From an uncultured Gemmatimonadaceae bacterium (GTDB lineage Bacteria > Gemmatimonadota > Gemmatimonadetes > Gemmatimonadales > Gemmatimonadaceae): a stretch of DNA of 64,000 bases. Position 1 is the first letter of the stretch, and each line of letters starts with the position of its first letter. Below, one piece after another: positions 33,125-55,614 of the stretch. The DNA lies in NCBI GenBank assembly GCA_963740355.1, contig CAVUDW010000003.1, positions 512,001 to 576,000 on the forward strand. The letters are read 5' to 3'. Under the pieces are notes generated by a model. It worked only from the letters and a program-made list of their open reading frames with translations, was not told the DNA's origin and ran no database searches. The translations under genes were made by a program, and so were the position numbers.

Positions 33125-33128
33125 GCCG

Positions 33129-38347: not shown

Positions 38348-38981
38348 TCAGCGCGCGCCAGCAGTGCGCATTGCGCTGAGCTCTTGCTGCGCGTGACGCA
38401 GGACCTGCGCGGCCCCAGACAATGAAAGCACGCCCATGATCATCGCCACCGCGATGTCGGGCCAGCCCTGTCGCGTCGTGAAGACGCCGGCCGCGGCCGC
38501 GACGACGGCGATGTTGCTGATAGCGTCGTTGCGCGAACAGATCCACACCGACCGCATGTTCGAGTCACCGGTCCGGTAGCGATACAACAGCAGCGCGACA
38601 CACACATTGGTAGCGAGCGCGATCAGCCCGATCACGGTCATGACCATCGGTTCCGGCACACGTCCGCTGGCGGCGACGTAGATCGGCGTGTGCAATGACC
38701 CAGATGCCGAACGCCCCCATCGTTGCCGCCTTGAGGACGGACGCACGTGCCCGGATCGACATGGCGGATGCCAGAACGAACAGGCTCAGACCGTAGTTCG
38801 CCGCGTCACCGAGAAAGTCCAGCGAGTCGGCCTGCAACGCGGACGAGCCAGACGCAATGCCGCCGACGACCTCGACGACGAACATGATCGCGTTCAGCGT
38901 CAGGGCGATCCACAGGACTCCGCGGTAGCGCTGCCCCGGCGCAACCGTCCCACAATCAGGTCCCGTGCAGCACGCGCTCAG
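38348..38981 (-). pseudogene. CDF family cation efflux protein (short type), frameshifted near 38686, CTG at the start position
   Basis: ALQADSLDFLGDAANY, NMRSVWICSRNDAI, WPDIAVA; GGAGG RBS precedes CTG-SACC. Confidence 0.8.
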
Positions 38982-39026
38982 ACGTCCTCCGCTTTGCAAA
39001 GGTGAGCCCTTCCCAGCGATGAGTGA

Positions 39027-39057
39027 ACGCTACACCTTGTAGTCACTACAAGGTCAA
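39027..39057 (-). promoter_or_regulatory. CadR/PbrR-type MerR promoter TTGACC-N19-TAGCGT
   Basis: Perfect 10-1-10 dyad ACCTTGTAGT-C-ACTACAAGGT at 39034-39054. Confidence 0.9.
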
Positions 39058-39067
39058 GGAGCAGATC

Positions 39068-39508
39068 ATGGCGACGGCACCCACGACGACGGCCGGCGAC
39101 CTCACCATCGGCGTGCTGGCGGCCCGGACGGGCTGCACGGCGGAAGCGATCCGGTACTACGAGCGGGAGGGCGTGTTGCCGCGCCCCGTTCGTGCCGGCT
39201 CAGGACGGTATCGTCGCTACACCGATGCTGACGTGCAGCGCCTGTCGTTCCTGCGCCGCGCGCGCGAGCTGGGCTTCAGCCTCGACGAGGTGCGCGCACT
39301 GCTCGCCTTCAGCGACGGCGACCCGCGCCGCTCGTGTGCCGATGTGGATTCGCTCGCCCGCGCCCATCTGGCGCAGGTTGATGGCAAGCTCTCGCAGCTG
39401 ACCGCCCTGCGCGGTGCACTCGCCGGCATCATCGACCGGTGCAGCGGCGGGCTGGCGGTGGCGGACTGCCGCATCCTGGATGCACTCGCCGGGGGCGTGC
39501 ACGACTAG
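39068..39508 (+). CDS. MerR family regulator, divalent-metal (CadR/PbrR/ZntR-like) type
   Basis: AAGGAG RBS, IRYYE, RSCADV and CSGGLAVADCRIL (three-Cys pattern). Confidence 0.9.
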   Translation: MATAPTTTAGDLTIGVLAARTGCTAEAIRYYEREGVLPRPVRAGSGRYRRYTDADVQRLSFLRRARELGFSLDEVRALLAFSDGDPRRSCADVDSLARAHLAQVDGKLSQLTALRGALAGIIDRCSGGLAVADCRILDALAGGVHD

Positions 39509-39527
39509 CGCACTGGCGACGCCCCAC

Positions 39528-40290
39528 TCATCCGCCCGCCATCCCCAGCAGCAGGAACACGAGGAAGCCCGCGAAGAACATCGCCGTCGCCGTCTGCGTC
39601 TCCGGCACCTCGTGCGCCTCGACCAGCAGTTCTTCCGTCACGAGATAGAGCAACGCAGCACACCCGAACGCCAACACGCCGGCGAGGGTGTGTTCTGACG
39701 CCCCGCGCAGCACAGTCTCACCCAGCCATGCGCCAACGGGCAGGAGCAGCGAGACGGCAAGCGGCACGCAGATCGTGCGCGTGCGACTGGCCCCGGCATC
39801 CGTGAGCTGGGCCGCCATGGCAAGGCCAAGGGAGAGCAATTCGAGGCTCAGCGCCGCGGTGAGCAGCATGCCCTCTTTCGCACCCGCCGCGGCGGCGATG
39901 CCGACCAGCAAACCATCGATCAGAATGTCGATGCCGATGGCGACGAGCTGACCGGTATCGACGCGCCCCGCCTTCGATTGCTGTGCCGGTGACACACCGT
40001 CGCCCGGCTCGGCAGCACCCGACTTCGAGCTTCGTTGCGAGACGCGCGAGCAGCATCATCACGAGCACACCACCGGCAAAACTGAGCCCGATCTCCCACG
40101 GATCGTGTACGCGCGTCACGTCGGGAAGCAGCTCGACTGCCACGACGGAAAACACGACGCCGGCCGCGAAGTGCTGAATGGCACTCCGGACCCGCGCTGA
40201 CGGCGGTCGGAATGCCGCGATGGATGCGCCCATGACCATCATCAGCACTGGCACCAGTGCCAGCGCGAACACGGGGATCGTCGTCGACAT
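39528..40290 (-). pseudogene. ZIP family metal transporter, frameshifted near 40019
   Basis: QHFAAGVVFSVVAVELLP, IDILIDGLLVG, LYLVTEELLVEAHE split over two frames. Confidence 0.8.
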
Positions 40291-42724
40291 CACGCCGCAC
40301 CGCCTGCTTCGCGATACCGCAGCAGCCGGAGCGCATTGACGATCACGACCAGCGTGCTCCCCTCGTGCACTACCACGGTGGGCCCGATCCGCAGCAATCC
40401 GCTGATCGTCGCGACGACGAGCACCGCGATCACGCCAAGTGACAGCACGAGATTCTGCGTGATCACGCGCTTCGTCTGACGGCTCAACCCGATGGCGAAC
40501 GGCAGTCGTCCGAGGTCGTCGCCCATCAAGGCCACGTCCGCCGTCTCGAGCGCCGCGGCCGTCCCCGCACCGCCCATCGCGATTCCGACACTGGCCCGGG
40601 CCAGAGCCGGCGCGTCATTCACGCCATCGCCCACCATCGCCACGCGCCCGTTCGCGGAGAGCTCGGTGATGGCCGTCACCTTGTCCTCCGGCATCAAGCC
40701 GGCGCGCACGTCGTCGATGCCAACGGCGCGGCCGACCGCCTGGCCGACACCGGCGTTGTCACCGGTGAGCATCACGATCCGCGTGATCCCCACGGCGCGC
40801 AGGCGCGCCAGCGTGTCACGTACATCCGCGCGCGGTTCATCGGCGATGCCGATCACGCCGAGCCACTCCGTTCCGCGACGCACCACCATCGTGGTCTGAC
40901 CACTCAATTCCAGACGCTCCACACCATCACGCACGGACGCCGGCACGGCGGCCGCCGCCGTCGGCTGATCCTCGAACATCAGGAGGCGTCCCACGTCGAC
41001 CTGCAGGCCCTCGACGACGGACCGCAGCCCGCGACCGGTCACGGACGTCACATCCGCAGCCGGCGGCACATCAATGGAACGCGCGCGCACTGCATCCATG
41101 ATCGCCTTCGCCAGCGGATGCTGCGAACGCTGCTCGACGGCGGCCGCCACGCGAAGCAATTCCGTCTCCGCCACACCGTCAGAGGGCAGCAGCGTCGTGA
41201 CTGCGGGCGTCCCACGTGTGATCGTGCCGGTCTTGTCGAGGGCGAGCGTGTCGATGCTGCCCAGCGACTCCAGATGCGCGCCGCCCTTGATCAGCACGCC
41301 GTGGCGCGCCGCCTGCGCGATGCCCGCCAGCACGGCCGCGGGTGTGCCGAGTGCGAGTGCACACGGCGACGCGGCCACCAGCAGCGCCATGCCCCGATAG
41401 AACGACTCGGTCCACGTCCACCATCCCATCAGCGACGGCACGACGATGATCGCGACGTCTGCCACGAGGACGAGCGGGACGAAGACCTGCTCGAAGCGAT
41501 CCGTGAACCGTTGCGTGGGCGCCTTCTGCGTTTCCGCCTCCGCCACCAACTTCACGACGCGATCCAGGGTCCGGTCACCCACGACGGCCGTCACCACGAC
41601 CACCAGCGCACCTTCGCCATTCACCGATCCGGCATACACCGGCGCACCCGCACTTTTCTCGACCGGAACGCTCTCGCCGGTCACGGGCGCCTGGTTGACC
41701 GCTGACGTGCCCGATTCGACGGTGCCATCCACCGGAAAACGCGCGGCAGGCTTGATGACCACACGCTCGCCCAATCGCACCGTTTCGACCGGCACGTCTT
41801 CCTCAGTGCGCCCCGCCGCGCTCTCACGAATCACCGTCGCACGCGTTGGCGTCAACGCGCTCAGCGCCGCAATCGCATTCCGCGCGCGTCCCAGTGCGTA
41901 ATGCTCCAGCGCATGCCCCAGACTGAACAGGAACAGCAGCAGCGCACCGTCCACCCACTCGCCAATGATTGCCGCGCCAAGTGCAGCGACGACCATCAGC
42001 AGGTCGATGTCGAAGTGCACGTGCCCCTTGCGGAGGTCCTTCAGCAAATGCCCGACGTTGTCGAGTGCACCCAACATGTACGCCGCGACGAAACACGCGA
42101 TGACGAGGCCTCGCGGTACGTCACCAACGCGCATGAGGCTCCAGCCGATCAGCAGAAACACGCCGGCGCCAAGACTCCATGCCAGCTCGGTGTTTCGCGC
42201 GTACCAGCTCACCGATGCGTCTGCCGGTTGCGTGGCATCGGGTGCAGCGCCCAGTTCGCGCAGCCGACGCCTCACGTCCTGTTCACTGACGCGCGTACGG
42301 TCGTACTCGACGCGCATCACCTGCGCGGGCACGTTCGCGACCGCCGCCGTGACGCCCTCGACCGCGCGCAGTTCAGCCTCCAGTCGACGCCCGCTGTCCT
42401 CGCTGCCGATGACATCCAGCGGCAGCACCGCGTGCGCGAAGCGCGCCGTCACCTCCGCCCCGGCGGTCCGTGCTATTTGCTGTAATGTCTGCAGCGTGAC
42501 CTGCTCGGGATCGTAGTGCAGGCAGAGCAGCGCCTCCGCGGCGGGCACTCGACCTGGCGGTTCGTTCGTGTCGTGTGTGACCGCGCGATCGCGCGCGTCA
42601 CGTGCACACGCGTCACGCCGGTCCGCACACTCAGCAGCGTGATCAGTCGGTCGATACACGCGTCCTGGGCATCCTCGACATCCGGCAGCAACATCGGCAG
42701 GTCGAGTCGCATGGTCTCAGGCAT
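40290..42724 (-). CDS. cadA: Heavy-metal P1B-4-type ATPase (Zn/Cd/Co); frameshift near 42600 separates the N-terminal ~40 aa
   Basis: TGES, SPC, DKTGT, GDGVND, HEGST; N-terminus MPETMRLDLPMLLPDVEDAQDAC is in another frame. Confidence 0.85.
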
Positions 42725-45700
42725 TCGTCACCTCCAACGGCGCGGCGTTCGCCTTCGCCGTTCGTCGAGCAGTCAGTGCCCGTTCGATCCAGGCGTACAA
42801 CGTGGGCAGGACGAAGAGTGTCAGCAGCGTCGAGGTGAACAGTCCGCCGATCACCACCGTGGCAAGCGGGCGTTGCACTTCTGCGCCGGTGCCGTGCGAG
42901 AGCGCCACTGGAATGAATCCGAGGCTCGCGACCAGCGCCGTCATCAGCACGGGACGCAGGCGACTACGTGCGCCGTTCACGGCGGCGTCAATCGGCGACG
43001 CGCCATGCCGCCGCGCACGCTGCACCGTCGTCAGGAGCACGAGACCATTCAGCACTGCGACACCGAAGAGGGCGATGAAGCCGATGCTCGCCGATACCGA
43101 GAGATGCAGCCCGCGAGCCCACAGTGCGAACACGCCGCCAACCGCCGCGAACGGCAGGTTCACCAACACGAGGCCTGCCAGCCACAGCGACTCCAGCGAC
43201 GTCCAGAGCAATAGCGCGATGAGGACGATGGAGAGTGGAACGACGACCTCGAGACGCGCCATCGCGCGGCGTTGATTCTCGAACGCCCCGCCGTAGGTGA
43301 TGAACACTCCCGGCGGCGGCGTGATGCGGGCACCGACCGCACGTTGCACCTCGGTCGCGAAGCCACCCAGGTCACGCCCGGAGACGTTCGTCTGGACGAG
43401 CGTGTAGCGCTGCGCTCGCTCACGGCTCACCTGCACCGGACCGTTCTCCAACCGGATGTCGGCAATCTGCGCCAACGTGATGCGGGCGCCGTTGGACGAC
43501 GGCAGTGCGATGGACCCGATGGCCTCCGCCGACGTGCGCAGACCCTCCGGGTAGTACACCGCCACGTCGATGGCCCACGCGCCCTCGACGAGCTGGGACA
43601 CCGGCCGTCCTCCGACCGCCGTCTCCAGCGCCTCCTGCACTTCGGTCATCGGTATGCCGAATCGTGCCATGGCGGCGCGGTTCATTCGCACGTTCAGATA
43701 GCCCTGCCCTGCAGTCTGCTCGACCCGGGTCTCCTCGGCGCCTTGCACGCCGTTGACCACGCGGGCCACCTGATCCGCAATGGATCGCGTGAGCTCGGGA
43801 TCGTCGCCGAAGATCTTGATCGCGAGGTCGGCGCGGACGCCGGAGATCAGCTCATCGAGCCGCATCTGCATCGGTTGCGTCATGCCTATCGCCACGCCCG
43901 GCACGCGCGCCGCGAGACGCGCGCTGATTTCACGCTCGAGCGAATCCTTGTCCACCAGTGGCCGCCACGCGTCGCGTGGCTTCAGCATCACGAACACGTC
44001 GGCCTGGTTCACGCCCATCGGGTCACTGCCGATTTCGGCGCGACCGACGCGGCTCACCACGGTCGTCACTTCCGGTGACATCCGCACCGTGCGCTCGAGT
44101 TCTGATTGCATCTGCACCGACCGGGTCAGTGAGATCGTGGGATCCTTCGTGGCGGAGATGAGGATCGCCCCCTCGTCGAGCTGTGGCAGGAACTCCGTGC
44201 CAAGGCGCGGTACCACCACGAGCGTTGCGGCGAGCAGCATGGCCGACACGGCAACGGTGACTTTCGGGTGCGCACTCACCGTGCCGAGGACGCGCGCGTA
44301 CCGCTGTTCCAGCCACAGCGTGACGCGTTGCGCGAGCTGCGACTCCGTCGCGCCACGCTGGAAGAGCCACGAACTCATCGCCGGCACGAAGCACAGTGCC
44401 AGGAACAGGCTGCCGAGCAGTGCACAGGCGACGGTGATCGCCATCGGCCGGAACAGGCGGGCCTCGAGGCCAGTCAGTGCCATGATCGGCACGTAGACGA
44501 GCATGATGATCAGCACACCGAAGGCCACGGGTCGCGCGACCTCGCGGCCTGCGGCAACCAGGCGCGCCTTCTGTTCCTCGCGCGTTGGCGCCGGTGCACC
44601 GCGCTCACCCACAGGATGCAGTGAGCGAACGAAGTGTTCAGCCATCACGACGCCGCCATCGACGATCATCCCGAAGTCGATGGCGCCCAGGCTCATGAGG
44701 TTGGCCGACAGTCCCAGCCACCGCATGCCGAGGAATGCGCACAGCAGGGCCAGCGGGATCGTGGCGGCGACGAGCAGCGCGGCGCGCACGTTGCCAAGGA
44801 AGAACAGCAGGATCACGATGACGAGCACGCCGCCTTCGACGAGGTTGGTCCGCACCGTCCGGATCGTGCCGGCGACGAGGTCCGTCTGATCGTAGTACGG
44901 CGTCACACGGACACCCTTCGGCAACGCGGCATTGATCTCGTCGACTTTGGCCTTCACGCGCGTCACCACGTCGCGGCTGTTCTCGCCGCGCAGCATCAGG
45001 ACGATGCCGCTGACCACTTCGCCGGTCGCGTCACGGGAGACGGCGCCCTGTCGGAGCTCGGCCCCGTATCGGACATCGGCCACGTCGCCGACGAGCACCG
45101 GGACGCCGGAGGCGCTGGCGCGAATCACCGTGGTGCGCAGATCCTCGAGCGTCGCCGCTGTGCCGAGCCCGCGCAGGATGTATTGCTCGTCGCCGTGCTC
45201 GAGGTACCCACCGGCGGCCACCGCGTTGTTCGATTTCACGGCCTCGACCACGTCGTGCAGCGTCAGCCCGAAACTGGTGAGTCGGTCTGGACGCACCACG
45301 ACTTGCGCCTGGCGCACGTAGCCACCGAAGCTGTTCACCTCCGTCACGCCGGCCACGGTGCGCAGCTGTGGACGCACGACGCGGTCATGGATGGTGCGCA
45401 ATGCCGCCAGATCCTGTCCACCGCCTTCCACGGTGTACATGTAGATCTCGCTGTTCGCGGCCGACAGCGGACCCAGTGTGGCTTCGGCCGTCGCGGGCAG
45501 CTGCGCACGCACGCCCTGCAGCCGTTCGCTGATCAGGGTGCGCGCGCGCTGGATGTCCATGCCGTCACTGAAGACGACGGTGACGGCGGCGAAACCGTAC
45601 TTGCTGACGGAGCGCACCTGGGTCACATCGGGCAGGCCGTTCATCGCCACTTCGGTCGGGAACGTCGCGAGGCGCTCCACCTCGACCGGTGACAAGCCCG

Positions 45701-45917
45701 GGGCTTCGATCAGGACCTGCACCTGCGCATCGGTGAGGTCGGGAAAGGCGTCCACGCGCAGTGTGCTCATGGCCCAGAGCCCAGCGACGACCAGCGCGAC
45801 ACTGAGGACCGCCACCACGCCGCGTCTTGCGACGGACCATGCGACCAGGCGCTCTACGACACCATCGGGCGCATCGCCCGGCACCTCGGGATGTGTCATC
45901 GGCGGCTCACTTGTCAT
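42717..45917 (-). CDS. czcA: CzcA-type heavy-metal RND transporter (second)
   Basis: DAFPDLTDAQVQV, SLGAIDFGMIVDG, GAEVQRPLATVVIGG. Confidence 0.92.
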   Translation of the reverse strand: MTSEPPMTHPEVPGDAPDGVVERLVAWSVARRGVVAVLSVALVVAGLWAMSTLRVDAFPDLTDAQVQVLIEAPGLSPVEVERLATFPTEVAMNGLPDVTQVRSVSKYGFAAVTVVFSDGMDIQRARTLISERLQGVRAQLPATAEATLGPLSAANSEIYMYTVEGGGQDLAALRTIHDRVVRPQLRTVAGVTEVNSFGGYVRQAQVVVRPDRLTSFGLTLHDVVEAVKSNNAVAAGGYLEHGDEQYILRGLGTAATLEDLRTTVIRASASGVPVLVGDVADVRYGAELRQGAVSRDATGEVVSGIVLMLRGENSRDVVTRVKAKVDEINAALPKGVRVTPYYDQTDLVAGTIRTVRTNLVEGGVLVIVILLFFLGNVRAALLVAATIPLALLCAFLGMRWLGLSANLMSLGAIDFGMIVDGGVVMAEHFVRSLHPVGERGAPAPTREEQKARLVAAGREVARPVAFGVLIIMLVYVPIMALTGLEARLFRPMAITVACALLGSLFLALCFVPAMSSWLFQRGATESQLAQRVTLWLEQRYARVLGTVSAHPKVTVAVSAMLLAATLVVVPRLGTEFLPQLDEGAILISATKDPTISLTRSVQMQSELERTVRMSPEVTTVVSRVGRAEIGSDPMGVNQADVFVMLKPRDAWRPLVDKDSLEREISARLAARVPGVAIGMTQPMQMRLDELISGVRADLAIKIFGDDPELTRSIADQVARVVNGVQGAEETRVEQTAGQGYLNVRMNRAAMARFGIPMTEVQEALETAVGGRPVSQLVEGAWAIDVAVYYPEGLRTSAEAIGSIALPSSNGARITLAQIADIRLENGPVQVSRERAQRYTLVQTNVSGRDLGGFATEVQRAVGARITPPPGVFITYGGAFENQRRAMARLEVVVPLSIVLIALLLWTSLESLWLAGLVLVNLPFAAVGGVFALWARGLHLSVSASIGFIALFGVAVLNGLVLLTTVQRARRHGASPIDAAVNGARSRLRPVLMTALVASLGFIPVALSHGTGAEVQRPLATVVIGGLFTSTLLTLFVLPTLYAWIERALTARRTAKANAAPLEVTNA

Positions 45918-47160
45918 CGTCAGCCAGCGACGCCTTCGCGAGCTCGCTCTTGAGCGTGAAGGCCCCGCGCACGACGACTCGCTCTCCGGCACGAAGTCCA
46001 TCCGTCACCACGACGGACGACGCGCGCTGGGTCGACGACCCTGGTGGCGCGAGCGGCATCGTGCGGACTTCACGACGGACGTAGCTCCGCTCACCCGTTT
46101 CCACGAAGACGAAGCGACGCTCCCCATCTGTGACGATGGCCACTTCCGGCACCGTCAGCACGGTCGCCAATGCGTCCGTCGCCGCACCCGCGGCGAGTGC
46201 CGTGCGTGTGCTGACCGACAGGCGCACGCTGGCGAACATCCCCGGCCGGAGACGCCGGCTGGCGTTCGCCACGTGGATCACGGCCTGCACCGTGCGCGTC
46301 TCGGGGTTGAGCGCGTCCTTCAGTCGCTCCACTTCACCGGTCGCGCGCATCTCGGGGAACGCGGCAATGCCCACCGTCGCTCGCTGTCCCACCTGCACCA
46401 GCGGGAGCGCGCGCTCCGGCACCTCGGCCACCACGTCGATCACGCTCAGGTCGGCGATGGTGAAGATCGGCGCACCCGGCTCCACCGCGGCGCCGGGGAG
46501 CAGATGGCGGGTCATCACGCTGCCGGCGAGTGGTGCGCGCAGCGCCAGCGTCGCGGCGGGTTCGCCGCCGCCCACGAGCCGCGCAATGTCGCCGTCGCTG
46601 ACACCAATGAGGCGCAGGCGACGCCGCGCGGCTTCGACCAGCGCCTGCGCACCCAACGAGTCGGACGTGACCGCGAGCACCTTCGCGCGCTGCACCGCCT
46701 GCTGCAGGTCGGACTGCGCCAGCAGGAATTCCTGACTGTACACGTACGCCACGATGGCACCGGCGGCCACATGGTCACCCTCGACCGCCGCCATCCGCTC
46801 GATGCGGCCGGCGAGGCGCGAGGACACGAGCGCGATGCGTCGAGGGTCCGCCTCGACCTGACCGGGCACCTCGAGTGCCTCACCTTCTGACGCGCTTGCT
46901 TGCGGCGCAACCGTCTGCACTGCAATCTGCGCCGTGCGTGCTGCGTCGGCGGAAAGGTTGACGTGGTCCGCGTTGGTGCTCTGCTCTGCGTCACTCGTGG
47001 TCGCCGAAACCTTCGTTGTGTCGAGTCGTGCACGAGTCGCCAGCGCGACGCTGTCGCCGCCGACTGGCTGTGCGTTCGGGCCGCAGGCGGAGAGCAGCGC
47101 GAGCAGCATCATGAGGGCCAGCATGACGCGCATGGACCGCGTCGAGAGTTGGAGAGTCAT
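45907..47160 (-). CDS. czcB: CzcB-like membrane fusion protein (second)
   Basis: Lipobox LSAC, LRPGMF, GAFTLKSEL. Confidence 0.85.
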   Translation of the reverse strand: MTLQLSTRSMRVMLALMMLLALLSACGPNAQPVGGDSVALATRARLDTTKVSATTSDAEQSTNADHVNLSADAARTAQIAVQTVAPQASASEGEALEVPGQVEADPRRIALVSSRLAGRIERMAAVEGDHVAAGAIVAYVYSQEFLLAQSDLQQAVQRAKVLAVTSDSLGAQALVEAARRRLRLIGVSDGDIARLVGGGEPAATLALRAPLAGSVMTRHLLPGAAVEPGAPIFTIADLSVIDVVAEVPERALPLVQVGQRATVGIAAFPEMRATGEVERLKDALNPETRTVQAVIHVANASRRLRPGMFASVRLSVSTRTALAAGAATDALATVLTVPEVAIVTDGERRFVFVETGERSYVRREVRTMPLAPPGSSTQRASSVVVTDGLRAGERVVVRGAFTLKSELAKASLADDDK

Positions 47161-47173
47161 TGGTCGGAGTCGG

Positions 47174-48568
47174 TTAGGGCTGGCTCGGCACCATCGGTGC
47201 CTGCGCTGGGCTCGACGGTCCACTGCCGTTGCCGGATAGGAGGTCCGCCAGTGCATCGGCGGCGTCGAGCAGCGCGTGCACGCGGTCGATCTCCGCGCGG
47301 GCGAGCGTGCGCTCGAAATCGATGAAGTCCAGCAGCGTGATGCCGCCGCTGCGGAACGAGGCGAGTGCGCTCTCGCGCTCCTCGCGTGCGCCCTGCAGCA
47401 GTGCGGCGTCGAACACTGAGAGGCGTTCGCGCGCCGCGTCGAGACGCTCGCGCGCCACCAGCAGTCGCGTGCGTGCGGCGCTGGTGACGGCCCGTCGGGA
47501 CTCTTCCGCGGACGCCACACTTTGCGCGTCAGCCTGCGCGACGAGGGCGTTCGGCCGGGACGACGTGAACGGCAGCGTCGTCGTGAATCCGAGGCTGGGT
47601 CCGAACGCCGGCCCGTTGTTCGCCTGACCGATGCGTTGCACGCCGGCGTAGGCGGTGACTTGGGCCCGGCGCTGTGCGATGCCGAGCGCCTGCTCGGCGC
47701 GTGCCTGCCGGACCGCAGCATCCGCCGCTTCGACGTCCCGCGACGCCACGAGGATCGAATCGAGACTCACGCGCATCATGATCAGGTCGTGCCACATGGC
47801 AATCGGCCCGCCTGCACCTGCGGTGGTAGACGGCTGCGCGAGCGAATCGAGCAGCGCACCGGCCTGCACGCCAGCGGCCCCCAGCAGCCCCACGAGTGCG
47901 GCGCGTCCGGCCCGAATTTCCGATAGCGCGGCGGCACGCTCCGTCTGCACGCGGAGCCGCTCCGTGCGCACGCGGAGCACGTCCACGTAGCGCGCGGCGC
48001 CGACGGCAAAGCGACTGCGGACATTCTCGTCCGCACCACTCAACAGCTGCTCTTCTGCCGCCAACCGGTCTGCGATGGCGCGCCACGCACCCGCGCGGAC
48101 CGTTTCGCGCAGCACGAGGGCATCCACTTCGCGCTCAGCCGCGCGCACCTCCGTCTCGGCCATCGCGACGCTCGCCGCGGCGACGTCGCGTGTCGCACCG
48201 TTGCGCCGTGCCGCGAAGAGTTCGCGACCGAATTCGAGGCGCAAGTTGCCCTGGGTCGGGTCGCCGTTCGGGGCTTCCGATAGGCCGGCGGTGAGCGTGA
48301 CAGGGCCCACGAACCCCGCGGCGGCGGCGCGCGACCGCGCGGCATCGCGTCGCGCACGCGCGGCGAGCACCGCCGGGCTGTTGGCCCGCGCGAGACGTTG
48401 CACGGCGGCAAGCTGCCGAATCGCATTCGTACTGTCGCCCATCGCCGCTGCGGAGACAGAACGGTCGACGGCGATGGCGCCGGTCAGGGTGGCCGCAACG
48501 AATCGCTGCCCTATGGCAAGGCGAGGCGCGCTACACAACAACAGCAGGAATAGGGACGCGTGCCGCAC
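47174..48568 (-). CDS. czcC: CzcC-like outer membrane factor (second)
   Basis: Signal peptide, OEP-like repeats, first structural gene of the operon. Confidence 0.78.
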   Translation of the reverse strand: MRHASLFLLLLCSAPRLAIGQRFVAATLTGAIAVDRSVSAAAMGDSTNAIRQLAAVQRLARANSPAVLAARARRDAARSRAAAAGFVGPVTLTAGLSEAPNGDPTQGNLRLEFGRELFAARRNGATRDVAAASVAMAETEVRAAEREVDALVLRETVRAGAWRAIADRLAAEEQLLSGADENVRSRFAVGAARYVDVLRVRTERLRVQTERAAALSEIRAGRAALVGLLGAAGVQAGALLDSLAQPSTTAGAGGPIAMWHDLIMMRVSLDSILVASRDVEAADAAVRQARAEQALGIAQRRAQVTAYAGVQRIGQANNGPAFGPSLGFTTTLPFTSSRPNALVAQADAQSVASAEESRRAVTSAARTRLLVARERLDAARERLSVFDAALLQGAREERESALASFRSGGITLLDFIDFERTLARAEIDRVHALLDAADALADLLSGNGSGPSSPAQAPMVPSQP

Positions 48569-48802
48569 ATAGATGGCGGCCGCCCCGAGACGCGCTCTGG
48601 CGCGCGGCGTGACAGTCTGGCACGGAGTATCTCAGCGGCGCGCAGCGCCGGCCGACGGTGTGTCAGCGGAAGCGCGTGCGCGGGATTGTCTGGTGGACCA
48701 TCCCGCGGTCGTGATCGACGAGCGGGTGGCCGTGGGTGCCTGCGATCAGCGCGAGACGTCAGCGCGTGCGCGCCGCGGGCGTGGCCGCGGTGGCGCTGCG
48801 CG

Positions 48803-49241
48803 TCAGGCGCTGCGCGAGAAGACTGGCGGCCGCAATGGCAACGCGCGATCCGCGCTGGCGGGGGCCTGCACATCCGACCACGACAGTCCGCGCGGTGCGC
48901 TGACGAGTGCCACCGTCAGCGTCGGCACCGTACTGAGCGTCACCACGTGCGCGTGCGTGCAATGGCACACGTGGAGGTCGTGCGACGACGTCGGGTGCGT
49001 ACCGCAATCGACGATGGGGCGTGCTGCGACGGCTGATGGCGCGTCGACGGCCAAGGGGCGCGACACACTGCGCGATCTCCGACGACGTGGCGACCACCCC
49101 ACCCGGCGCCGGCGCATCGCCGTCGTGTGTGTCAGCGATCAGCGACTCGAACGACGAGATGCTGAAGACCACCATCAGCATGGCGGCGAGGCACCGCTGC
49201 AGGAGGATCCGCGACGCGCGAGGCCTGCGACGCAGCGCCAT
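48803..49241 (-). CDS. Secreted His/Cys leader protein ending LPLRPPVFSRSA; apparent frameshift near 49070
   Basis: Signal plus ADTHDGD in one frame, HDLHVCHCTHAH and RPP tail in another; lies between the MerR promoter and czcC. Confidence 0.6.
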
Positions 49242-49318
49242 GGCCCGTGCGCACGCCGCTTGGCGTGACGGGGCGACAGGCTGGCGGGGTGATCGCGTGG
49301 GCGGCGGGCATGGTAACC

Positions 49319-49349
49319 AGTATAAACCCTGAAGTGACTGCAAGGTCAA
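49319..49349 (-). promoter_or_regulatory. CadR/PbrR-type MerR promoter TTGACC-N19-TATACT
   Basis: 19-bp spacer with imperfect dyad ACCTTGCAGTCACTTCAGGGT, similar to 39034-39054. Confidence 0.88.
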
Positions 49350-49351
49350 CG

Positions 49352-49585
49352 GCTCGTATGTGGCGCACTCGTCGGCATCGACGCATTTGCCACGCGCTCG
49401 GCCTGCATTTGACCGGCGTCGACGCGTTCGCGCGAAGGCTGCCCCCGCCTGACAACGCCGCGCCGTACGTCGGGACACGCGGGCTGGTGCACTACGTGAC
49501 GCAGCGGATGACCGCAGCCGTTGCCGTGGCGATGGTCGAGCACCGCGCCACGAATGATCTCGCGGAACTGTCGGAGCACGCGTGA
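49352..49585 (+). pseudogene. C-terminal remnant of a ClpX-like ATPase (paralog of 9267-10310)
   Basis: LGLHLTGVDAF...PPPDNAAPYVGTRGLVHYVTQR versus LGVTVTGIETF...PAPDNSRDYIGLRGLLHFVTQR. Confidence 0.8.
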
Positions 49586-49740
49586 CCGCGCGCGCCGGGT
49601 GGCTTCACCGCGCACCGTGGCTGCTCACCGTGGTCGATGACTCGCCGGCCCCCGCACCGTGCCTCGCAGCCTCCGTCACGCCGTCGAATGACGGCACTGC
49701 TGCACTCTCGCACACCCGGCACTGGCCGGAGGAGCTACAG

Positions 49741-50127
49741 ATGGCTTTCACGCGCTGTTACCCCATGACGACCGACGAGCGGTATGTCAGGCTCGCCAAG
49801 AACGCGCTGTCGAACGAACCGGAACTGGGGCTGCCGTCGATGACGCGCTTCATGGAGTCGTTCCGACCGCGCGTCGCGCGCGTCGTTGCACCGCTGCACG
49901 CTGGCATGCGCCGGCCGATCCTCACGCAGGAGGCGTATGCCGAGCACGCCCTCGCATCTCTGGCGTCGCAGCTCGACGCCTGTCCGGCGTGCACGGACGA
50001 TGCCCTGCACGTGTGGGTGTCGTCGGAGACCACGCGCGCGGTGCTCGACCTGCATCACGCGCTGCGCCGTGCGCTGCGTACGCGTCGGCGTCAGCGCATC
50101 ACCGCGCCGTCTGCGCGAGCGGCATAG
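49741..50127 (+). CDS. Sigma-70 region-2-like stand-alone protein (paralog of 10511-10897); an in-frame upstream start at 49582 is possible
   Basis: GGAGGAG RBS; GLPSMTRF...DDALHVWVSSETTRAVLDL; same length as its paralog (128 aa). Confidence 0.65.
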   Translation: MAFTRCYPMTTDERYVRLAKNALSNEPELGLPSMTRFMESFRPRVARVVAPLHAGMRRPILTQEAYAEHALASLASQLDACPACTDDALHVWVSSETTRAVLDLHHALRRALRTRRRQRITAPSARAA

Positions 50128-50391
50128 CCTCGCACCTGCGCGGCAATGCTGCACACGATGCGGCACGCCACGCATAGCAAGGAGAAGGCTCGCAGGGACC
50201 GCCAGCCGGTGCCTGCGCAGCCGATCCGATTTGTGCGCCGGGATGGTCGCGGTCACCATCTGCGCCGAGCCCGCGTGAATCGACGTGCCGCGCGCGGCGC
50301 GCGTCAGCTGCCCCCGCAGTGAAGTCCTCACCCTCAGTCGTCGGGCATCACGCCGATGTCATGACGCTCCACATCACATTCGAGGTTCTCC

Positions 50392-51549
50392 ATGGATCAC
50401 ACGCAGACGCCAGCACTCGAGCAGCCGACGACCCGCTTCCCGTTCAACACCGCACCGACGGAGGGTGGCCACGAGTCGGGCGCCGCCGTGCTCGTCGAGC
50501 GCGACGACAAGGTCACGCGTGCTGGGAAGCCGTATGCGCGGCTCGGGTTTCGCAACAACACGGGATCGGCGACGGTCAATGTCTGGGACAAGCAGTTGCC
50601 CGAGATCGGCGGGATCGGCGTCGGATCGCCGGTGCGCATCGCGCTGACCGGTGGCGCTGGCCAGGACGGGAGCATCGAGTGGAAGTTCACGGCGATCCAG
50701 TCCCTGCCCCCGAACCACGCCGTCAGCCGTGAAGCGATGCCGCAATGCCCCGTCTCGCGGACGGACCTGATCGCGCGGACGACGCGGCTGCTCGACGCCG
50801 TGTCCGATGAGGGGCGGGACCTGTTCAGTCGCGTGATGCGGACACCGGTGCGAGGCGCCGACGGTGTTCTCGCACCATTGAAGCCCGCGTTCGCGCAGGC
50901 CCCCGCGGCACTGGGGCATCATCACGCGCACCTCGGCGGTTTGTGGTGGCACAGCCTCCAAGTCGCAGAAGGCGCCGAAGCCGTGGCGCTGGCGTACCGC
51001 GCGAGCGGTGATGCGCCCGACCTCGACATGGATGCCGTGCGACTCGGTGGGCTGCTGCACGACCTCGGGAAGGTCCTGGAGTACGGGTGGGCCGGCGTGA
51101 TCGCGATGGCGCCGCTGTCCGGTTCGATGTCCCACATGGGCCATGGTCTGCGGCTGATGACCGAGGCACTCACGCGGGCAGAGGTGGTCGAGAATTGGCT
51201 CCCGACATCGCGTCAGCGGCAGCTCGCGGAACACGTGCAGCACATCATCGCGAGCCACCATATGCAGCAGCGTTGGGGTGCGATTTCCGAGCCGGCCAGC
51301 CGCGAGGCCTGGTGCGTGCAGTCGGCCGACATGCTCTCCAGTCGCATTCAGCCATTAACTGACGCCTTCGCGTCGATCACCGACCGCGGTGATCGCCTGG
51401 TGCAGGTGCAGGACGGCTGGAAGAAGAAGTACGTGTTCGCCGCACCCATGCCGACGGCCGTTGGCGAGACAACGATCCCTCAAGCGACACACCACGACGA
51501 CGCCGCACTCGTCACGCTCACACTCGATCCTCAGACCGAGGAGTCCTGA
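50392..51549 (+). CDS. YhaM/CBF1-like OB-fold + HD-domain nuclease
   Basis: TRAGKPY...TGS...VWD OB fold; APAA..HHH...GGL..HSL, LLHDLGK, GH, SHH, ADMLS. Confidence 0.85.
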   Translation: MDHTQTPALEQPTTRFPFNTAPTEGGHESGAAVLVERDDKVTRAGKPYARLGFRNNTGSATVNVWDKQLPEIGGIGVGSPVRIALTGGAGQDGSIEWKFTAIQSLPPNHAVSREAMPQCPVSRTDLIARTTRLLDAVSDEGRDLFSRVMRTPVRGADGVLAPLKPAFAQAPAALGHHHAHLGGLWWHSLQVAEGAEAVALAYRASGDAPDLDMDAVRLGGLLHDLGKVLEYGWAGVIAMAPLSGSMSHMGHGLRLMTEALTRAEVVENWLPTSRQRQLAEHVQHIIASHHMQQRWGAISEPASREAWCVQSADMLSSRIQPLTDAFASITDRGDRLVQVQDGWKKKYVFAAPMPTAVGETTIPQATHHDDAALVTLTLDPQTEES

Positions 51550-51550
51550 C

Positions 51551-51844
51551 ATGGTGGAGCGCGTTCATCCAGCGACACCGTCTCGCACCGCGGCGCGCCA
51601 GATCGCGATCACCACGCACGCACATGCGAGCTACTTACACAGCGCGCTCATCGCGACGGAGCGCATGTTCGGCCGAGACCGTGACCCCGATTTCGACCGC
51701 TGGGTGCGCATGGCGCGGGTGACGCTCTTGGAACTGATCCCCGAAGAAAAGGCGCGCACGCTGCTGCGGGTGACCGAGAACCTGCTGTCGCGACTGAACG
51801 CGTCGCGAGAGGCCACGCCCGTCCACGACAATTGCGGTCGATGA
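51551..51844 (+). CDS. Small hypothetical protein
   Basis: GAGGAG RBS, starts just after the HD gene stop, resembles 10926-11396. Confidence 0.6.
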   Translation: MVERVHPATPSRTAARQIAITTHAHASYLHSALIATERMFGRDRDPDFDRWVRMARVTLLELIPEEKARTLLRVTENLLSRLNASREATPVHDNCGR

Positions 51845-52161
51845 AGACCATCGACGCGGCGCAACGCAGTGATGATCCACGAGACGGCGCCACTCACTGA
51901 AGTGTCGCTCCCGTGGAACCGAACTCGCAGTACGTCGAACCGCGTGGGCCTCACAGGGAACCCGACCCATCCCGCTCCCCCGGATCCACGGCCATGAGGG
52001 CTGTCGGAGATGGCCCACGTGGATGGGCGCGCGGTTTCCACACTGCCACCACAGTCGGCGGCGTGGTACGCAGCGCACCGACATCACGGCCACGAGGGCT
52101 GCGACTTCGGCGCGCAGCGACCACCGCGTCTCGACGTGGCGAGGACCGACACGACTACCGT

Positions 52162-52806
52162 CTACTGCCTCGGCGGCACGCTCCACACCCCAGCCGCATC
52201 GACGCACCACTTCCACTTCGTCAGCACCAAGGTAAGGGCCTCGTAAAAGTCGACGCTCGACGTGTGCCCGACCTCGCACCACTCCGTGCAATATTCCGGA
52301 AGATGCTCCGCGATGGCAGCGACGGTCCACGTCGTGTGCTTGCCGAGCGTGATCACATCCGCCTCGTCGGCCACGCGCCTCGCGAGATGCGCTCGAACGG
52401 CGTCGGTGTCGAGGCGCCCAGTGTCGCGCTGGAAATTGTCCCAGCGGTCGAAGTCGTCGTCCGGCATGTTGGTGTCGTACTTGATGTCCGACACGCAGAT
52501 CCGCTGCGCTATAGGGGCAGCCGCCAGCGTCACAGTCCGTGCGCGCTGCGTCCGCTTCCGGTCGCGCTCTCGCTCCCGCTTCGCCAGCTGGGTCGCGCTC
52601 GGTGCGCCCGTCGGGGCGAGCGAGGCGAGATACTCCTCTAGCGTACCGGCGGCACGCTGCCGGTCGGCTATGTCCTTCGCGACCGTGTTCCGTGATATCT
52701 TGAGTGTTCGCGCGATGCTGGCCTTTTCTTCGTCACGTTCATGGGCCTCACAGACCGCGCGAATCCGCGCGATCCGGTCCTCGTCGCACTGAATCGGTCG
52801 TGCCAT
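52162..52806 (-). CDS. HTH-containing protein, candidate element regulator
   Basis: KASIARTLKISRNTVAKDI helix-turn-helix; AAGGA RBS. Confidence 0.65.
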   Translation of the reverse strand: MARPIQCDEDRIARIRAVCEAHERDEEKASIARTLKISRNTVAKDIADRQRAAGTLEEYLASLAPTGAPSATQLAKRERERDRKRTQRARTVTLAAAPIAQRICVSDIKYDTNMPDDDFDRWDNFQRDTGRLDTDAVRAHLARRVADEADVITLGKHTTWTVAAIAEHLPEYCTEWCEVGHTSSVDFYEALTLVLTKWKWCVDAAGVWSVPPRQ

Positions 52807-52909
52807 GCGTGTCGTCCTTGTGCGGGATGAGGCGCGGTGAGCCCGGAACTCCATCTGCTCAATTGTCCCATTGGGCGTCGGAAGCGAGGGCCGCGGTAGG
52901 CTGACGGAC

Positions 52910-53752
52910 ATGCCACCGTCGACATGCGAACCGACAGCTACTGAACAGGCGCCTTCGGAATTTATTCGGTTCCGCCGCGCCGTCAACGAGGTCTTTGAGG
53001 ATTATCCTCCAGAGACCGTCGGACCAGGCGTTGCCCGACTCCTCCTCGGCGTGCAGCGACGCGTGCTCGACGCCGCGTTGGCGCACCTGTCGCCGTCTGG
53101 CGAGTTCTCAAACCAAGTGCCGGTCGCTCAGCGGGGTGACCCGGCAGCGTCGTCCGCGGAGACAACCGAGCGGCATGGCGATGCTGTCGCTGCATCATCA
53201 GCGCCTCCCGTCGTCGACGTACGCGCGCCGGACACGCGCGTCCGCCCTGAGGTAGTTGCCATCGTCCCATACGGCGGCGCACCGGACGAGCCGCTGATGG
53301 AGCCGACGCCGAATCCGGGGGGCTTGGACCACGTCCCCGAGCAGGTGGTCGCAGACGAAGAGCCCGTCTGGGCGTTCCCGGCGCCCCCGACCCCGACGGC
53401 CGACGCTGTCGATCCCGTCAGGTCAGCGCTCGGCGATGCGGCGACCGCCGCACTCCAGCGCCAGCGCGCTGCGGCCCTCGTTGCCTCGGCAACAGGGCCG
53501 ATGATGCCTGCGGTCTCGCCAGGAGCCGCACCATGCCCCGCCAACGCCCCGTTCGCATCGACCACGTCACGCCCCGTGGCATCGCCGTCGTCATCGAAGA
53601 TCGACCCGGCCGACCGTCGGCCCAACTCCGGTGGTGGGACCCCGCCACGCAGACCACCCAACGGCTGGCCATGGGCATCGCAACGCGCGATGCCCATGGA
53701 CGCCGCTCCCCGCAACACCTCACCCTCCTCCGCGAGCTCGCAGACCGCATGA
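52910..53752 (+). CDS. Hypothetical protein with a helical N-terminus and Pro/Ala-rich tail; 3' end overlaps the integrase and is doubtful
   Basis: Protein-like first ~60 aa; TAGGCT 7 nt before the ATG; divergent from the HTH gene. Confidence 0.4.
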   Translation: MPPSTCEPTATEQAPSEFIRFRRAVNEVFEDYPPETVGPGVARLLLGVQRRVLDAALAHLSPSGEFSNQVPVAQRGDPAASSAETTERHGDAVAASSAPPVVDVRAPDTRVRPEVVAIVPYGGAPDEPLMEPTPNPGGLDHVPEQVVADEEPVWAFPAPPTPTADAVDPVRSALGDAATAALQRQRAAALVASATGPMMPAVSPGAAPCPANAPFASTTSRPVASPSSSKIDPADRRPNSGGGTPPRRPPNGWPWASQRAMPMDAAPRNTSPSSASSQTA

Positions 53753-55413
53753 TTGAAGAACACACTACCACAACCGCCGCGCACACCGCAGCGCCAGCAG
53801 CAACCGAACCGGCGACGATTCGCCACGCGTTCGACACTGCGCTGGACCCGCGTACAGGGAAGGCGCGTGCCGCAGGCTCCGAGCAGAACGCGGACTGGAA
53901 GCGCGCGTCCCGTGAGGCGTTGGCCGCCCTTGGCGCCGAACGGCGGATCCGCGATCTCAGCGGATACGATGCGAAGTTGCTTGTGCAGTCGTGCCTCCTG
54001 CGGCAGGCCGCCGGGCAGTCGCTAGAGGTCTGGACCGAGCACCTCGATGCGGTGCGTGCGAGACGCCCGACCGGTACCCTTCTGACGCTGGACGACCTCT
54101 TGGCGGTGCACGCCGCCCTGTGTCCAGTCGCAGCCACGAATGCGGCGCTTGGCGGCTTGCGCACCTGCGAACTGACGATGCACAACGTCCGGGCGATGCT
54201 GCGATACGTCCGCGCGTACGCACCCGGCACCTTCGCCGGCGTGGAGCAATTCCAACTCGTCGAGCAGTTGGATCTCCTCCTCGCGTCCGTCGCCACAGAA
54301 ATCAACGCGACCGTCAACACGAAGGTCAATCGGCAGCGTCCTGCGCTTGAACACGCACGCCGACTAATGCTCCGCGTCATGGACCCGAGGCATCGCACGC
54401 TCACGATCCTGACGGTGGCCTGTGGACGTCCCGGTGCATACCGGGTGCGCCGCTGTCATATCGAACGCGAGGTCGGCAAGGCGCGGTACCGCATCCGCGA
54501 AACGAAGAGCGACGGATCGCTGGCACTCGGCTACAAGTATGTCGCCGGTCACGCGGCGGCATTCCTCGAGGCGGAGCTGGCGACCACCTTCCGCGACTTC
54601 GAGGCACGCTGGCTCGAATCGCGCGAGGACTATGCGCTCCTGCACGGGCATGACTGGGATGGCACGGCGTTGGTCCCTGACGCGAGCGCCGGCTTGCTCT
54701 ACATCGACCCGCGGTTCCGCCTCCTGCTGATCCTCGGCGTGGAAGGCCGCCTCGAGCAGCAGGGCCGCTTGAGCTATCGCATGCTGCAGCGTGTCGAGGG
54801 TGGGATGCTGGCGCTGCGGAGCCCGGGTCGGGACAAAAAGCGCGCGTCGGACCTCGTGCTGTGTGACGCGCAGGTCGAGGCCATCGCCTTCGAGTGCACC
54901 GTGGGCTTTCTCGCGCCGCTGATGAAGGCGTACGACGCGACGCAGGCGCGGGTGGCACGGGGGCTGACGGCGCCACCTAGCGAGATCGATGTGCACGACT
55001 TCCCTCTCGCGCCCGCAGGCCAACTGGCAATGGGGCAGGCGCGCGCCGTCGCCGTCTCGCTCCAGCCGTCCGATGACCGCACGCTGTGGGACTGGAACAA
55101 GCCGCTGCTCGACGCGCTCGGCATCAAGGGCGAGGGCACGTCGCTGCGCGCGTGGCGGCGCCTGTGCGTCGACCTGTACAAGCAGTGGCGCCTCGATCCG
55201 GATGTGCATCGCCTCGTGACCGGCCACGGCGCGGTGTCCGTCGCTGGCGACCTGCAGCGCGATGACCAGGAGGACACCTTGCAGACCATCTACTTCAATC
55301 AGGCCGCACTGCACCTGGCCCAGGAGGCGCAGGCCGTGATGCAGCACATGCGGACCACGTTTCCGGCATCGGGAGCGCCATACCGCCGAATCGTGACCGA
55401 CACACTGCAGTAG
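53533..55413 (+). CDS. Divergent tyrosine recombinase/integrase
   Basis: AGGAG RBS; N-terminal arm-binding-like region (LRWWDP); LLLILGVEGRLEQ, DKKR, SLRAWRR, VTGH, TIY in canonical order; ends ~130 nt from the tRNA 3' end. Confidence 0.72.
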   Translation: MPRQRPVRIDHVTPRGIAVVIEDRPGRPSAQLRWWDPATQTTQRLAMGIATRDAHGRRSPQHLTLLRELADRMIEEHTTTTAAHTAAPAATEPATIRHAFDTALDPRTGKARAAGSEQNADWKRASREALAALGAERRIRDLSGYDAKLLVQSCLLRQAAGQSLEVWTEHLDAVRARRPTGTLLTLDDLLAVHAALCPVAATNAALGGLRTCELTMHNVRAMLRYVRAYAPGTFAGVEQFQLVEQLDLLLASVATEINATVNTKVNRQRPALEHARRLMLRVMDPRHRTLTILTVACGRPGAYRVRRCHIEREVGKARYRIRETKSDGSLALGYKYVAGHAAAFLEAELATTFRDFEARWLESREDYALLHGHDWDGTALVPDASAGLLYIDPRFRLLLILGVEGRLEQQGRLSYRMLQRVEGGMLALRSPGRDKKRASDLVLCDAQVEAIAFECTVGFLAPLMKAYDATQARVARGLTAPPSEIDVHDFPLAPAGQLAMGQARAVAVSLQPSDDRTLWDWNKPLLDALGIKGEGTSLRAWRRLCVDLYKQWRLDPDVHRLVTGHGAVSVAGDLQRDDQEDTLQTIYFNQAALHLAQEAQAVMQHMRTTFPASGAPYRRIVTDTLQ

Positions 55414-55477
55414 TTCGCCTCGAACTCGCGACCCGATGAGGACAGAATCGGGGACAAAACGACACCAGAAACGGCAC

Positions 55478-55510
55478 CGACCCCCTGAATCGCAAAGATT
55501 CAGGGGGTCG
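55478..55510. terminator. 14-bp perfect hairpin between the convergent integrase and tRNA
   Basis: CGACCCCCTGAATC-GCAAA-GATTCAGGGGGTCG; no clear U-tract. Confidence 0.6.
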
Positions 55511-55540
55511 TAACTCATTATGCTACAATGCTTTTCACTA

Positions 55541-55614
55541 TCGGGACGACAGGATTCGAACCTGCGACCCCCTGAACCCCATTCAGGTGCGCTACCGGGC
55601 TGCGCTACGTCCCG
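55541..55614 (-). tRNA. tRNA-Pro(GGG), CCA not encoded
   Basis: CGGGACGTAGCGCAGCCCGGTAGCGCACCTGAATGGGGTTCAGGGGGTCGCAGGTTCGAATCCTGTCGTCCCGA folds as a cloverleaf with anticodon GGG. Confidence 0.97.

Follow-up and report, generated by a model that had tools for sequence, protein, structure and literature searches.

Lambda-Int-like heterobivalent integrases that target tRNA genes are ~350–450 amino acids (aa) long and have a three-part layout of arm, core-binding and catalytic domains. Their genes lie near the 3′ end of a tRNA gene, the identity block at the target runs from the anticodon loop to the tRNA 3′ end, and motifs are repeated in both arms of the attachment (att) site. According to the main text of PMC8138268, short beta-hairpin or helix insertions are found in the catalytic domain of integron IntI, IntTn916/Tn1549, IntBPP-1 and lambda Int, and the first His of the catalytic pentad is weakly conserved in IntBPP-1. 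The gene described here likewise carries an extra element on the canonical fold, which in this case appears to be a whole duplicated half-domain instead. It encodes a 626 aa integrase and is found in a 64,000-nucleotide (nt) stretch, termed the window, of contig CAVUDW010000003.1 (positions 512,001–576,000, assembly GCA_963740355.1) from an uncultured Gemmatimonadaceae bacterium. In the main text of PMC8138268 "duplicat" and "additional domain" have 0 occurrences, and the listings of a full-text literature search contain no description of a duplicated catalytic half-domain or of a duplicated-lobe family.

In all likelihood, judging from sequence and a structure model, the gene encodes a functional, highly divergent arm-domain (lambda-Int-like) tyrosine integrase with a duplicated unit, which placed a ~100.7-kb metal-resistance/defence island in the 3′ part of tRNA-Pro(GGG). 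The likeness to the lambda-Int-like enzymes lies in the three-part layout, with the arm assignment of the N-terminal domain putative, in the position of the gene near the tRNA 3′ end, in the identity block and in the motifs repeated in both arms. The differences are the length (626 versus ~350–450 aa; a sequence-only reading of the window had already called the protein much longer than typical tRNA-targeting integrases), an extra 108-aa pseudo-catalytic unit, an Arg for the His of HxxR, and no match to PF00589 or to the Pfam arm domains. The closest solved proteins are the Xer recombinases (XerA 4a8e/5hxy, XerD 1a0p, XerH 5jk0). These are ~270–350 aa long, have no arm domain and only one N-terminal half of the catalytic domain, possess the His of HxxR, and act in chromosome-dimer resolution, not island integration.

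The sequence-only reading placed two similar segments 108 aa apart in the 626 aa open reading frame (ORF) and took them to be the first half of the catalytic domain, present twice in tandem. The segments are present as described: DPRHRTLTILTVACGRPG (DPRHRTL) begins at residue 284 (nt 54382) and DPRFRLLLILGVEGRLEQ (DPRFRLL) at residue 392 (nt 54706). The accompanying motifs RETKS (322–326), RDKKR (433–437), DYAL (366–369), DFPL (489–492), SLRAWRR (537–543) and VTGH (562–565) are found as well. A BLASTP comparison of the two segments, termed lobe 1 and lobe 2, is marginal (19/53 identities, E-value = 0.008). Internal repeat detection, a check proposed with that reading, was done with hhalign on columns 264–391 versus 392–505 cut from the 25-sequence family alignment. 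This gives a probability of 94.3%, an E-value = 1.1e-7 and a score of 46.3 over 85 columns, and pairs residues 284–370 with 392–493, from DPR through DYALL/DFPLA. Reversed controls score 11.8 and 9.5, and none of 60 column shuffles comes near (best 17.4). The hidden Markov model (HMM) of unit 1 matches unit 2 of the family proteins P0014, P0020 and P0022 (independent E-value 1e-3 to 1.4e-5), and also the single unit of relatives at loci L008, L010, L011 and L020. The order of secondary structure is identical in both units and consists of two helices, three strands and two helices.

Lobe 1 (residues 264–391) modelled alone gives a predicted local distance difference test score (pLDDT) of 92.9 and a predicted template modelling score (pTM) of 0.82. 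Its structural matches are Cre 156–263, XerD 117–225 and lambda Int 186–288. In a search of 48,161 chains with lobe 1, ranks 2–16 are all tyrosine recombinases or topoisomerases IB (15/15), each matched over the N-terminal catalytic half. It has been considered that lobe 1 is an unrelated inserted domain, resembling lobe 2 by chance or convergence without any duplication. The hhalign E-value with its clean reversed and shuffled controls, the matches of the unit-1 HMM to unit 2 and to the single unit of relatives, the shared order of secondary structure and the ranking of lobe 1 all speak against this, and it is very improbable. By profile and model, lobes 1 and 2 are thus assigned as homologous, the product of an internal duplication; the single-copy relatives and the unit tree described below agree with a duplication of the first catalytic half.

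The catalytic residues are found with the second copy. In the 25-row alignment R406, K436, R542 and R543 are each present in 25/25 rows, H565 in 24/24 and Y587 in 22/23. R406, K436, R542, H565 and Y587 correspond to catalytic Arg I, the beta-hairpin Lys, Arg II, His/Trp III and the nucleophilic Tyr, so that only the second copy runs on to a full set, as had been read from the sequence. The His of HxxR was thought to be replaced, and this holds. Canonical relatives have GRGWHSLRRKFA where the family has g-r-a-l-R-g-W-R-R; the relatives read H-S-L-R and XerA H-Q-L-R, and because of this alignment the HxxR of the integrase is R539-A540-W541-R542. The residues found in the column of the His are R in 16 rows, Y in 5, H in 2, N in 1 and V in 1. 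As a side observation, the His III column (H565) is always His in the duplicated family and is Trp in several single-copy relatives, as in Cre and Flp.

Lobe 1 shows neither of the catalytic residues of its half. The residue opposite R406 is G, N, T or S, with Arg in 0/17 sequences, and opposite K436 Lys is found in 0/19. Lacking both, lobe 1 is predicted to be catalytically dead, though not decaying, and the first copy was correctly called pseudo-catalytic. The claim that each copy carries a K-containing beta region stands as to the presence of RETKS and RDKKR. The pairing of K325 with K436 does not; it is off by ~4 residues in the profile alignment, where S329 is opposite K436, and K325 is Lys in only 6/19 sequences. 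The ratio of nonsynonymous to synonymous substitution rates (dN/dS), from the one pair formed by the integrase and its 88%-identical orthologue at L036, is 0.21 for the whole gene, 0.17 for lobe 1 and 0.24 for lobe 2. These values indicate purifying selection on the whole gene, lobe 1 included.

The fold of the integrase has been examined with an AlphaFold2 model built on the 25-row family alignment, which shows a mean pLDDT of 85.2. A Foldseek list for the full model is headed by Cre, lambda Int, XerH, Tn1549 Int and Flp, and the modelled catalytic domain displays the DNA breaking-rejoining fold of the tyrosine recombinase superfamily. A profile made from lobe 2, the C-terminal half and the single-copy relatives, with canonical members excluded, matches XerA (E-value = 3.1e-6) and XerD (2.3e-4 and 9.3e-4). 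When two canonical relatives are added the XerA match improves to 3.9e-10, and the Arg I, Lys, HxxR, GH and Tyr motifs are aligned. No match is found among PDB sequences with either the single protein or the 25-member family profile, and 0/17 scanned relatives match Pfam integrase models at E ≤ 1. The search against the Phage_integrase profile PF00589 (curated cut-off 27.1 bits), also suggested with the sequence-only reading, leaves the integrase without a match even at E ≤ 10. By predicted fold and by catalytic residues the integrase is a tyrosine recombinase, as that reading held, and it stands outside PF00589 because it fails the threshold of that family. Type IB topoisomerases differ in that they are monomers with no or weak DNA specificity, no such arm or core-binding domains and no association with att sites. 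Recombinase-fold repressors (MrpR, YopR, SroF) show the fold without the catalytic set, and the integrase does not fit this class.

Relatives with a single copy of the unit are found within the phylum. A family-profile scan of 401 same-phylum genomes gives matches in 18, which, the window's own genome and three fragments aside, span only profile positions ~373–580. In 10 ORFs of relatives (stop-to-stop frames, 351–651 aa) the lobe 1 and lobe 2 HMMs match one and the same region, e.g. at 219–325 and 239–328 in L008 and at 69–182 and 91–184 in L010; therefore these relatives carry one unit. The lobe 2 HMM gives the stronger match to this single unit (E-value 1e-13 to 1e-24, versus 1e-5 to 5e-10 for lobe 1). 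The relatives grade into PF00589: L010 scores 26.3 bits, L011 and L009 have E-values of 1e-3 and 2e-3, and L017 and L019 are clear members with 67.1 and 72.1 bits. Seven of the 13 relative ORFs scanned show no PF00589 match at E ≤ 0.1.

An unrooted maximum likelihood tree of 38 units (14 lobe 1, 14 lobe 2 and 10 single; 91 columns) groups the lobe 1 units with support of 100/99 and the lobe 2 units with 89/88. With respect to the 100/99 branch, the single units are placed on the side of lobe 2. Both lobes contain the same sub-groups, and branches are longer among the lobe 1 units. Such a pattern agrees with a single duplication that preceded the diversification of the family, unit 2 keeping the ancestral sequence. 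An old intragenic duplication of the N-terminal catalytic half (helices, three-strand sheet and two helices) would have produced the two units in the ancestor of a small family, inside a clade of integrases that have one copy and target tRNA genes. The ancestral role would have stayed with unit 2, and unit 1 would have lost the catalytic Arg and Lys and evolved faster, held by purifying selection.

The family appears rare, Pfam-dark and distinct. Among 1.84 billion cluster representatives, 40 are found at E ≤ 0.001, 27 at ≤ 1e-10 and 14 at ≤ 1e-30, and the proposal of a new subfamily agrees with these numbers. A word-indexed search of 5.8 billion proteins gives 6 matches to the integrase, and a second, profile-based word-indexed search adds two fragments and nothing more. 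A tblastn search of phage and plasmid collections with the integrase protein shows no match. The integrase is single-copy within its genome. The two-lobe architecture is present in at least 14 full-length proteins of other sources, down to 28–36% identity, and all five domains are present at three loci of other genomes. These occurrences, together with the congruent lobe 1 and lobe 2 subtrees, effectively refute the idea that the long ORF is an artefact, whether of chimeric assembly or of two adjacent integrase genes recently fused in frame in this one genome; in its favor is only that tandem-stacked islands leave integrase remnants at the tRNA, so that fragments do occur nearby. An MPRxR N-terminus is common to the integrase and its full-length homologues, and the third-codon-position GC content of the gene is 0.81, like that of neighboring genes.

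The orthologue P0004 at L036 (record JACMPK010000065.1, 3001–4875) is publicly annotated as 553 aa, beginning at a Met inside the frame. A 625-aa protein from a GTG 72 codons upstream of the annotated start is favored by the open frame and by the alignment. ESM Atlas lists integrase-like clusters of 428–482 aa, which are a lead only.

The integrase stop codon is 127 nt from the 3′ end of tRNA-Pro(GGG). The 43-nt att core at this tRNA has two exact copies in the same orientation at contig positions 466874–466916 (L034 6875–6917) and 429730–429772 (L035 4731–4773). They lie 100,666 and 137,810 bp to the left, beyond the window, with spacings of 100,666 and 37,144 bp. The element is flanked, as with other arm-domain integrases, by direct repeats of the 3′ segment of its target tRNA. 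On the repeat sequences the three copies define two islands stacked in tandem at tRNA-Pro(GGG), of 100,666 and 37,144 bp. Rightward of the two distal copies the flanking DNA shows ~140 bp of homology, as expected for the far ends of two related tandem-stacked elements. The 100.7-kb element terminates in the duplicated-lobe integrase. No integrase is found alongside the 466.9k repeat, where only a cation-efflux gene and a LytTR two-component pair are present. A genome-wide PF00589 scan shows 4 recombinase genes elsewhere and none in the island array, and the integrase is the only recombinase detected in the array.

Two further observations concern the leftward part of the array. The 37-kb island, without an integrase at its repeat, resembles the site-specific accretion of an integrase-less element. 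An 88-aa frame at L035 4325–4588 (contig C3 ~429324–429587) lies to the left of the leftmost 43-nt repeat, at a distance of 143 nt, and its match to the family is confined to the ~40 C-terminal residues (E-value = 2e-5). This C-terminal remnant left of the 429.7k copy suggests a third, older and decayed element further left.

The order of integrase followed by tRNA-Pro(GGG) is also found at L037 and L038 of one other genome (36% and 34% identity), and at L023 of the same-genus genome G287 with a C-terminal integrase fragment only. The L036 contig ends before any tRNA could appear. Single-copy relatives adjoin tRNA-Asn, -Ile, -Val, -Ser or -Pro(CGG) at 6/10 loci examined. In G350, of the same genus, the region C1 117061–145006 (L022, L024) contains the same tRNA-Pro, and at distances of 3 kb and 28 kb from it the 43-nt core recurs in partial or complete form with identical arm-motif spacing; no integrase of the duplicated-lobe family is detected there. 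This tRNA is a recurrent island hot-spot in the genus. The att identity extends as far as the 5′ edge of the anticodon loop, which, by analogy with other tRNA-targeting integrases, suggests strand exchange in or near the loop.

Several results weigh against a functional tyrosine integrase with a duplicated unit. The integrase fails every curated integrase model, with no match in Pfam, PHROGs or NCBIfam at E ≤ 10, and the canonical His of HxxR is missing, its position being held by R539. The spacing of 22 residues from H565 to Y587 is longer than in the aligned solved enzymes, in a stretch where pLDDT is 55–69. The pTM of the full model is only 0.60. Foldseek gives nothing at E ≤ 0.001 for the full model (best E-value = 8.9e-3), nor for lobe 1 (E ≥ 0.23), where Cre, topoisomerase IB and XerH are on top. 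The unit tree has only 91 columns, and because it is unrooted the order of duplication events is only inferred; dN/dS comes from a single pair. Among sequencing runs searched for the locus no RNA run is listed, and the best DNA run contains only 0.18 of the words. Present-day mobility is unproven because no transfer genes are detectable on the island.

Some of these points could also be explained if the protein had been domesticated into a DNA-binding protein of recombinase fold, whether a regulator of the MrpR, YopR or SroF kind or a relic without activity, and the att repeats recorded past events by it or by another enzyme. The replaced HxxR His, the failure to match Pfam integrase models and the transfer genes not found are in keeping with this, as are the att repeats without a duplicated-lobe integrase at the 37-kb island and in G350. 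Nevertheless R406, K436, R542, H565 and Y587 are invariant or nearly so among members at ~30% identity, purifying selection extends over the whole gene, the adjacency to tRNA-Pro(GGG) is kept in distant members, the 43-nt repeats are exact and no other recombinase is found in the array. Domestication is accordingly considered improbable, and a functional integrase with a duplicated unit remains the preferred explanation. Positions of the features are collected in Table 1.

Table 1. Features of the integrase gene, its target site and the island, in window coordinates unless a motif is named
Feature	Position	Strand	Basis
Right-hand 55.5 kb of the 100,666-bp island, remainder left of the window	1..55539	.	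Repeat spacing, Pfam cargo
HD-domain gene (50392–51549, 385 aa) and small ORF (within 51389–51844)	50392..51844	+	Pfam HD 9e-10
Integrase gene, 626 aa + stop	53533..55413	+	ORF list, translation
N-terminal four-strand sheet and long helix, putative arm-type DNA-binding domain, residues 1–88	53533..53796	+	AlphaFold2 secondary structure
Helical core-binding (SAM-like) domain, residues 91–263	53803..54321	+	
First catalytic-domain helix and lobe 1 (unit 1 = 284–391), residues 264–391, predicted catalytically dead	54322..54705	+	
Lobe 2 (repeat unit 2), putative catalytic copy, residues 392–505; R406 (54748–54750), K436 (54838–54840)	54706..55047	+	R406, K436 invariant in 25/25 rows; aligned to XerA Arg I and beta-hairpin Lys
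C-terminal catalytic half, residues 506–626; R539-A-W-R542 (55147–55158), H565 (55225–55227), Y587 (55291–55293)	55048..55410	+	Alignment to HSLRR relatives and XerA HQLRH...GH...Y
Family aEgRlgQ, XerA AGLRVSE	Arg I		Printed profile alignment
Family gkK, XerA GGK	Beta-hairpin Lys		Printed profile alignment
Family yGlRR, XerA HQLRH	HxxR		Printed profile alignment
Family GH, XerA GH	His III		Printed profile alignment
Family rvY, XerA QIY	Nucleophilic Tyr		Printed profile alignment
TCGGGGACAAAACG, candidate arm-type site, integrase-proximal arm	55448..55461	+	Copies in other arms
Hairpin of two inverted copies of ACCCCCTGAA (10-mer also in att core)	55478..55510	.	Same geometry in L036
43-nt att core = tRNA-Pro nt 33–74 (anticodon loop to 3′ end) + 1 nt	55540..55582	.	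Exact repeats
tRNA-Pro(GGG), putative integration target, sole tRNA in the window	55541..55614	-	ARAGORN

The predicted order of domains is an arm-type N-terminal domain (1–88), a core-binding domain (91–263), the first catalytic helix (264–283), the two units (284–391 and 392–~495) and the C-terminal catalytic half. The N-terminal domain is modelled as strands 8–12, 18–23, 30–36 and 41–46 followed by a helix at 60–84. An arm-domain HMM matches relatives, and Pfam arm-domain models give no match to the integrase itself. Full-length lambda Int rows extend to model residues 11–19, yet with a root-mean-square deviation of ~20. Unit 2 and the C-terminal half would supply R406, K436, R542, H565 and the nucleophile Y587, with Arg539 at the HxxR His. 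Catalysis would follow the normal route of such enzymes through a 3′-phosphotyrosyl intermediate at the Tyr, of which the three exact 43-nt direct repeats at the tRNA are indirect evidence, and strands would be exchanged within the anticodon loop or close to it, at the end of the att identity. Lobe 1 would be an extra non-catalytic module, most likely contacting DNA or another protomer, and situated topologically between the core-binding and catalytic domains.

The arms of the att sites carry candidate binding sites. TCGGGGACAAAACG is found once in each arm, including the distal arm of both islands (L034 7022, L035 4878), and at the orthologous locus L036. Extra copies of ACCCCCTGAA are found in both arms besides the one in the att core. 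From their distribution TCGGGGACAAAACG and ACCCCCTGAA are candidate binding sites. Lobe 1, as a dead copy of that half of the catalytic domain which contacts DNA, might act as a third DNA-reading head for the additional core half-sites (TTCAGGGGGT / ACCCCCTGAA) in both att arms; this is a speculative and rather unlikely assignment. If it is true, arm, core and accessory-core sites would all be bound by the integrase itself, and its assembly or regulation of the intasome would need none of the usual host bending proteins or accessory factors. This would be a new route to directionality or specificity in a tyrosine integrase.

A 12-mer, CGACCCCCTGAA, at window position 37661 was considered as the far att end of an 18-kb island and rejected. 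Its flanks are unlike the tRNA, it is situated in a terminator-like hairpin and the true repeats are outside the window. A 13-nt copy of a segment of the att core, GCGACCCCCTGAA, is found at 37660–37672, within a hairpin of terminator type at the edge of a second MerR-YnfA module and far from the att sites; it may be a chance match or a secondary site.

The integrase is preceded by an HD-domain gene and, downstream of the latter, a small ORF. By tblastn both have counterparts at L037 (4–1325) and L038 (4–1265), with 36–37% identity for the HD gene (E-values 1e-48 and 2e-46) and E-values of 5e-7 and 2e-7 for the small ORF. Both are thus kept upstream of the integrase in family members that are only ~35% identical. 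This points to a conserved integration module, and the HD gene and small ORF may form an accessory, excision or regulatory module.

The cargo of the island is taken from a Pfam scan of ORFs, for which gene calling was crude. The metal-resistance genes consist of three resistance-nodulation-division (RND) efflux sets, four P-type ATPases, a multicopper oxidase with CopC, and MerR regulators. The defence genes consist of a type I restriction-modification system, an OLD-family nuclease and a SEFIR/TIR protein, and some metabolic genes are present as well. Metal efflux and resistance genes are found within the window and the defence genes further left. The defence cluster, at L039 16888–19222 and L040 785–8863 (contig C3 ~483.7–495.6 kb), contains SEFIR/TIR, DUF3800, an OLD-family ATPase-TOPRIM nuclease, HsdR and HsdM. 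No phage structural or conjugation domains are found among the island ORFs scanned by Pfam. The genome as a whole, 94.5% complete, contains 0 matches to coupling protein PF02534 or VirB4 PF03135 (relaxase models not searched). The island therefore shows neither the coupling protein nor the VirB4-type ATPase of an integrative and conjugative element of the type IV secretion system kind.

Parts of the metal-resistance cargo are repeated within the island. Segments 26387–27192 and 37725–38286, 12882–13026 and 39007–39151, 14046–14120 and 40573–40647, and 2–244 and 13493–13830 are duplicates with 74–86% identity. The MerR-YnfA pair is among the duplicated genes, as are P-type ATPase and DUF305 genes, and the island has several RND efflux sets besides. 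Repeated duplication or acquisition appears to have built up the metal-resistance cargo. A CDF cation-efflux gene (38348–38999, minus strand) and a ZIP transporter gene (39528–40293, minus strand) are each split into two overlapping frames holding the N- and C-terminal parts of the Pfam domain, and are likely frameshifted pseudogenes. Just beyond the island, at 55684–57954 (minus strand), a 756-aa ORF contains EutB (residues 44–477) and EutC (540–745). This is a fused large and small subunit of ethanolamine ammonia-lyase and adjoins an amino-acid permease.

From its sequence and setting, the integrase appears to do an ordinary job, genomic-island integration at a tRNA site, with an unusual conserved extra lobe. 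The catalytic domain of a tyrosine recombinase can, it appears, bear and long retain a tandem copy of its own N-terminal half. Island-finders based on integrase models would miss the recombinase of the ~138-kb stacked array of metal-resistance and defence islands because the family escapes Pfam, NCBIfam and PHROG, and the recombinases of similar islands in related soil and sediment bacteria would likewise be missed by such tools. The existence of relatives with one unit and with two, together with a defined att core of 43 bp, offers a tractable system for the role of the extra lobe in synapsis, specificity and directionality, and the duplicated-lobe family may be a source of a new large-cargo integrase.

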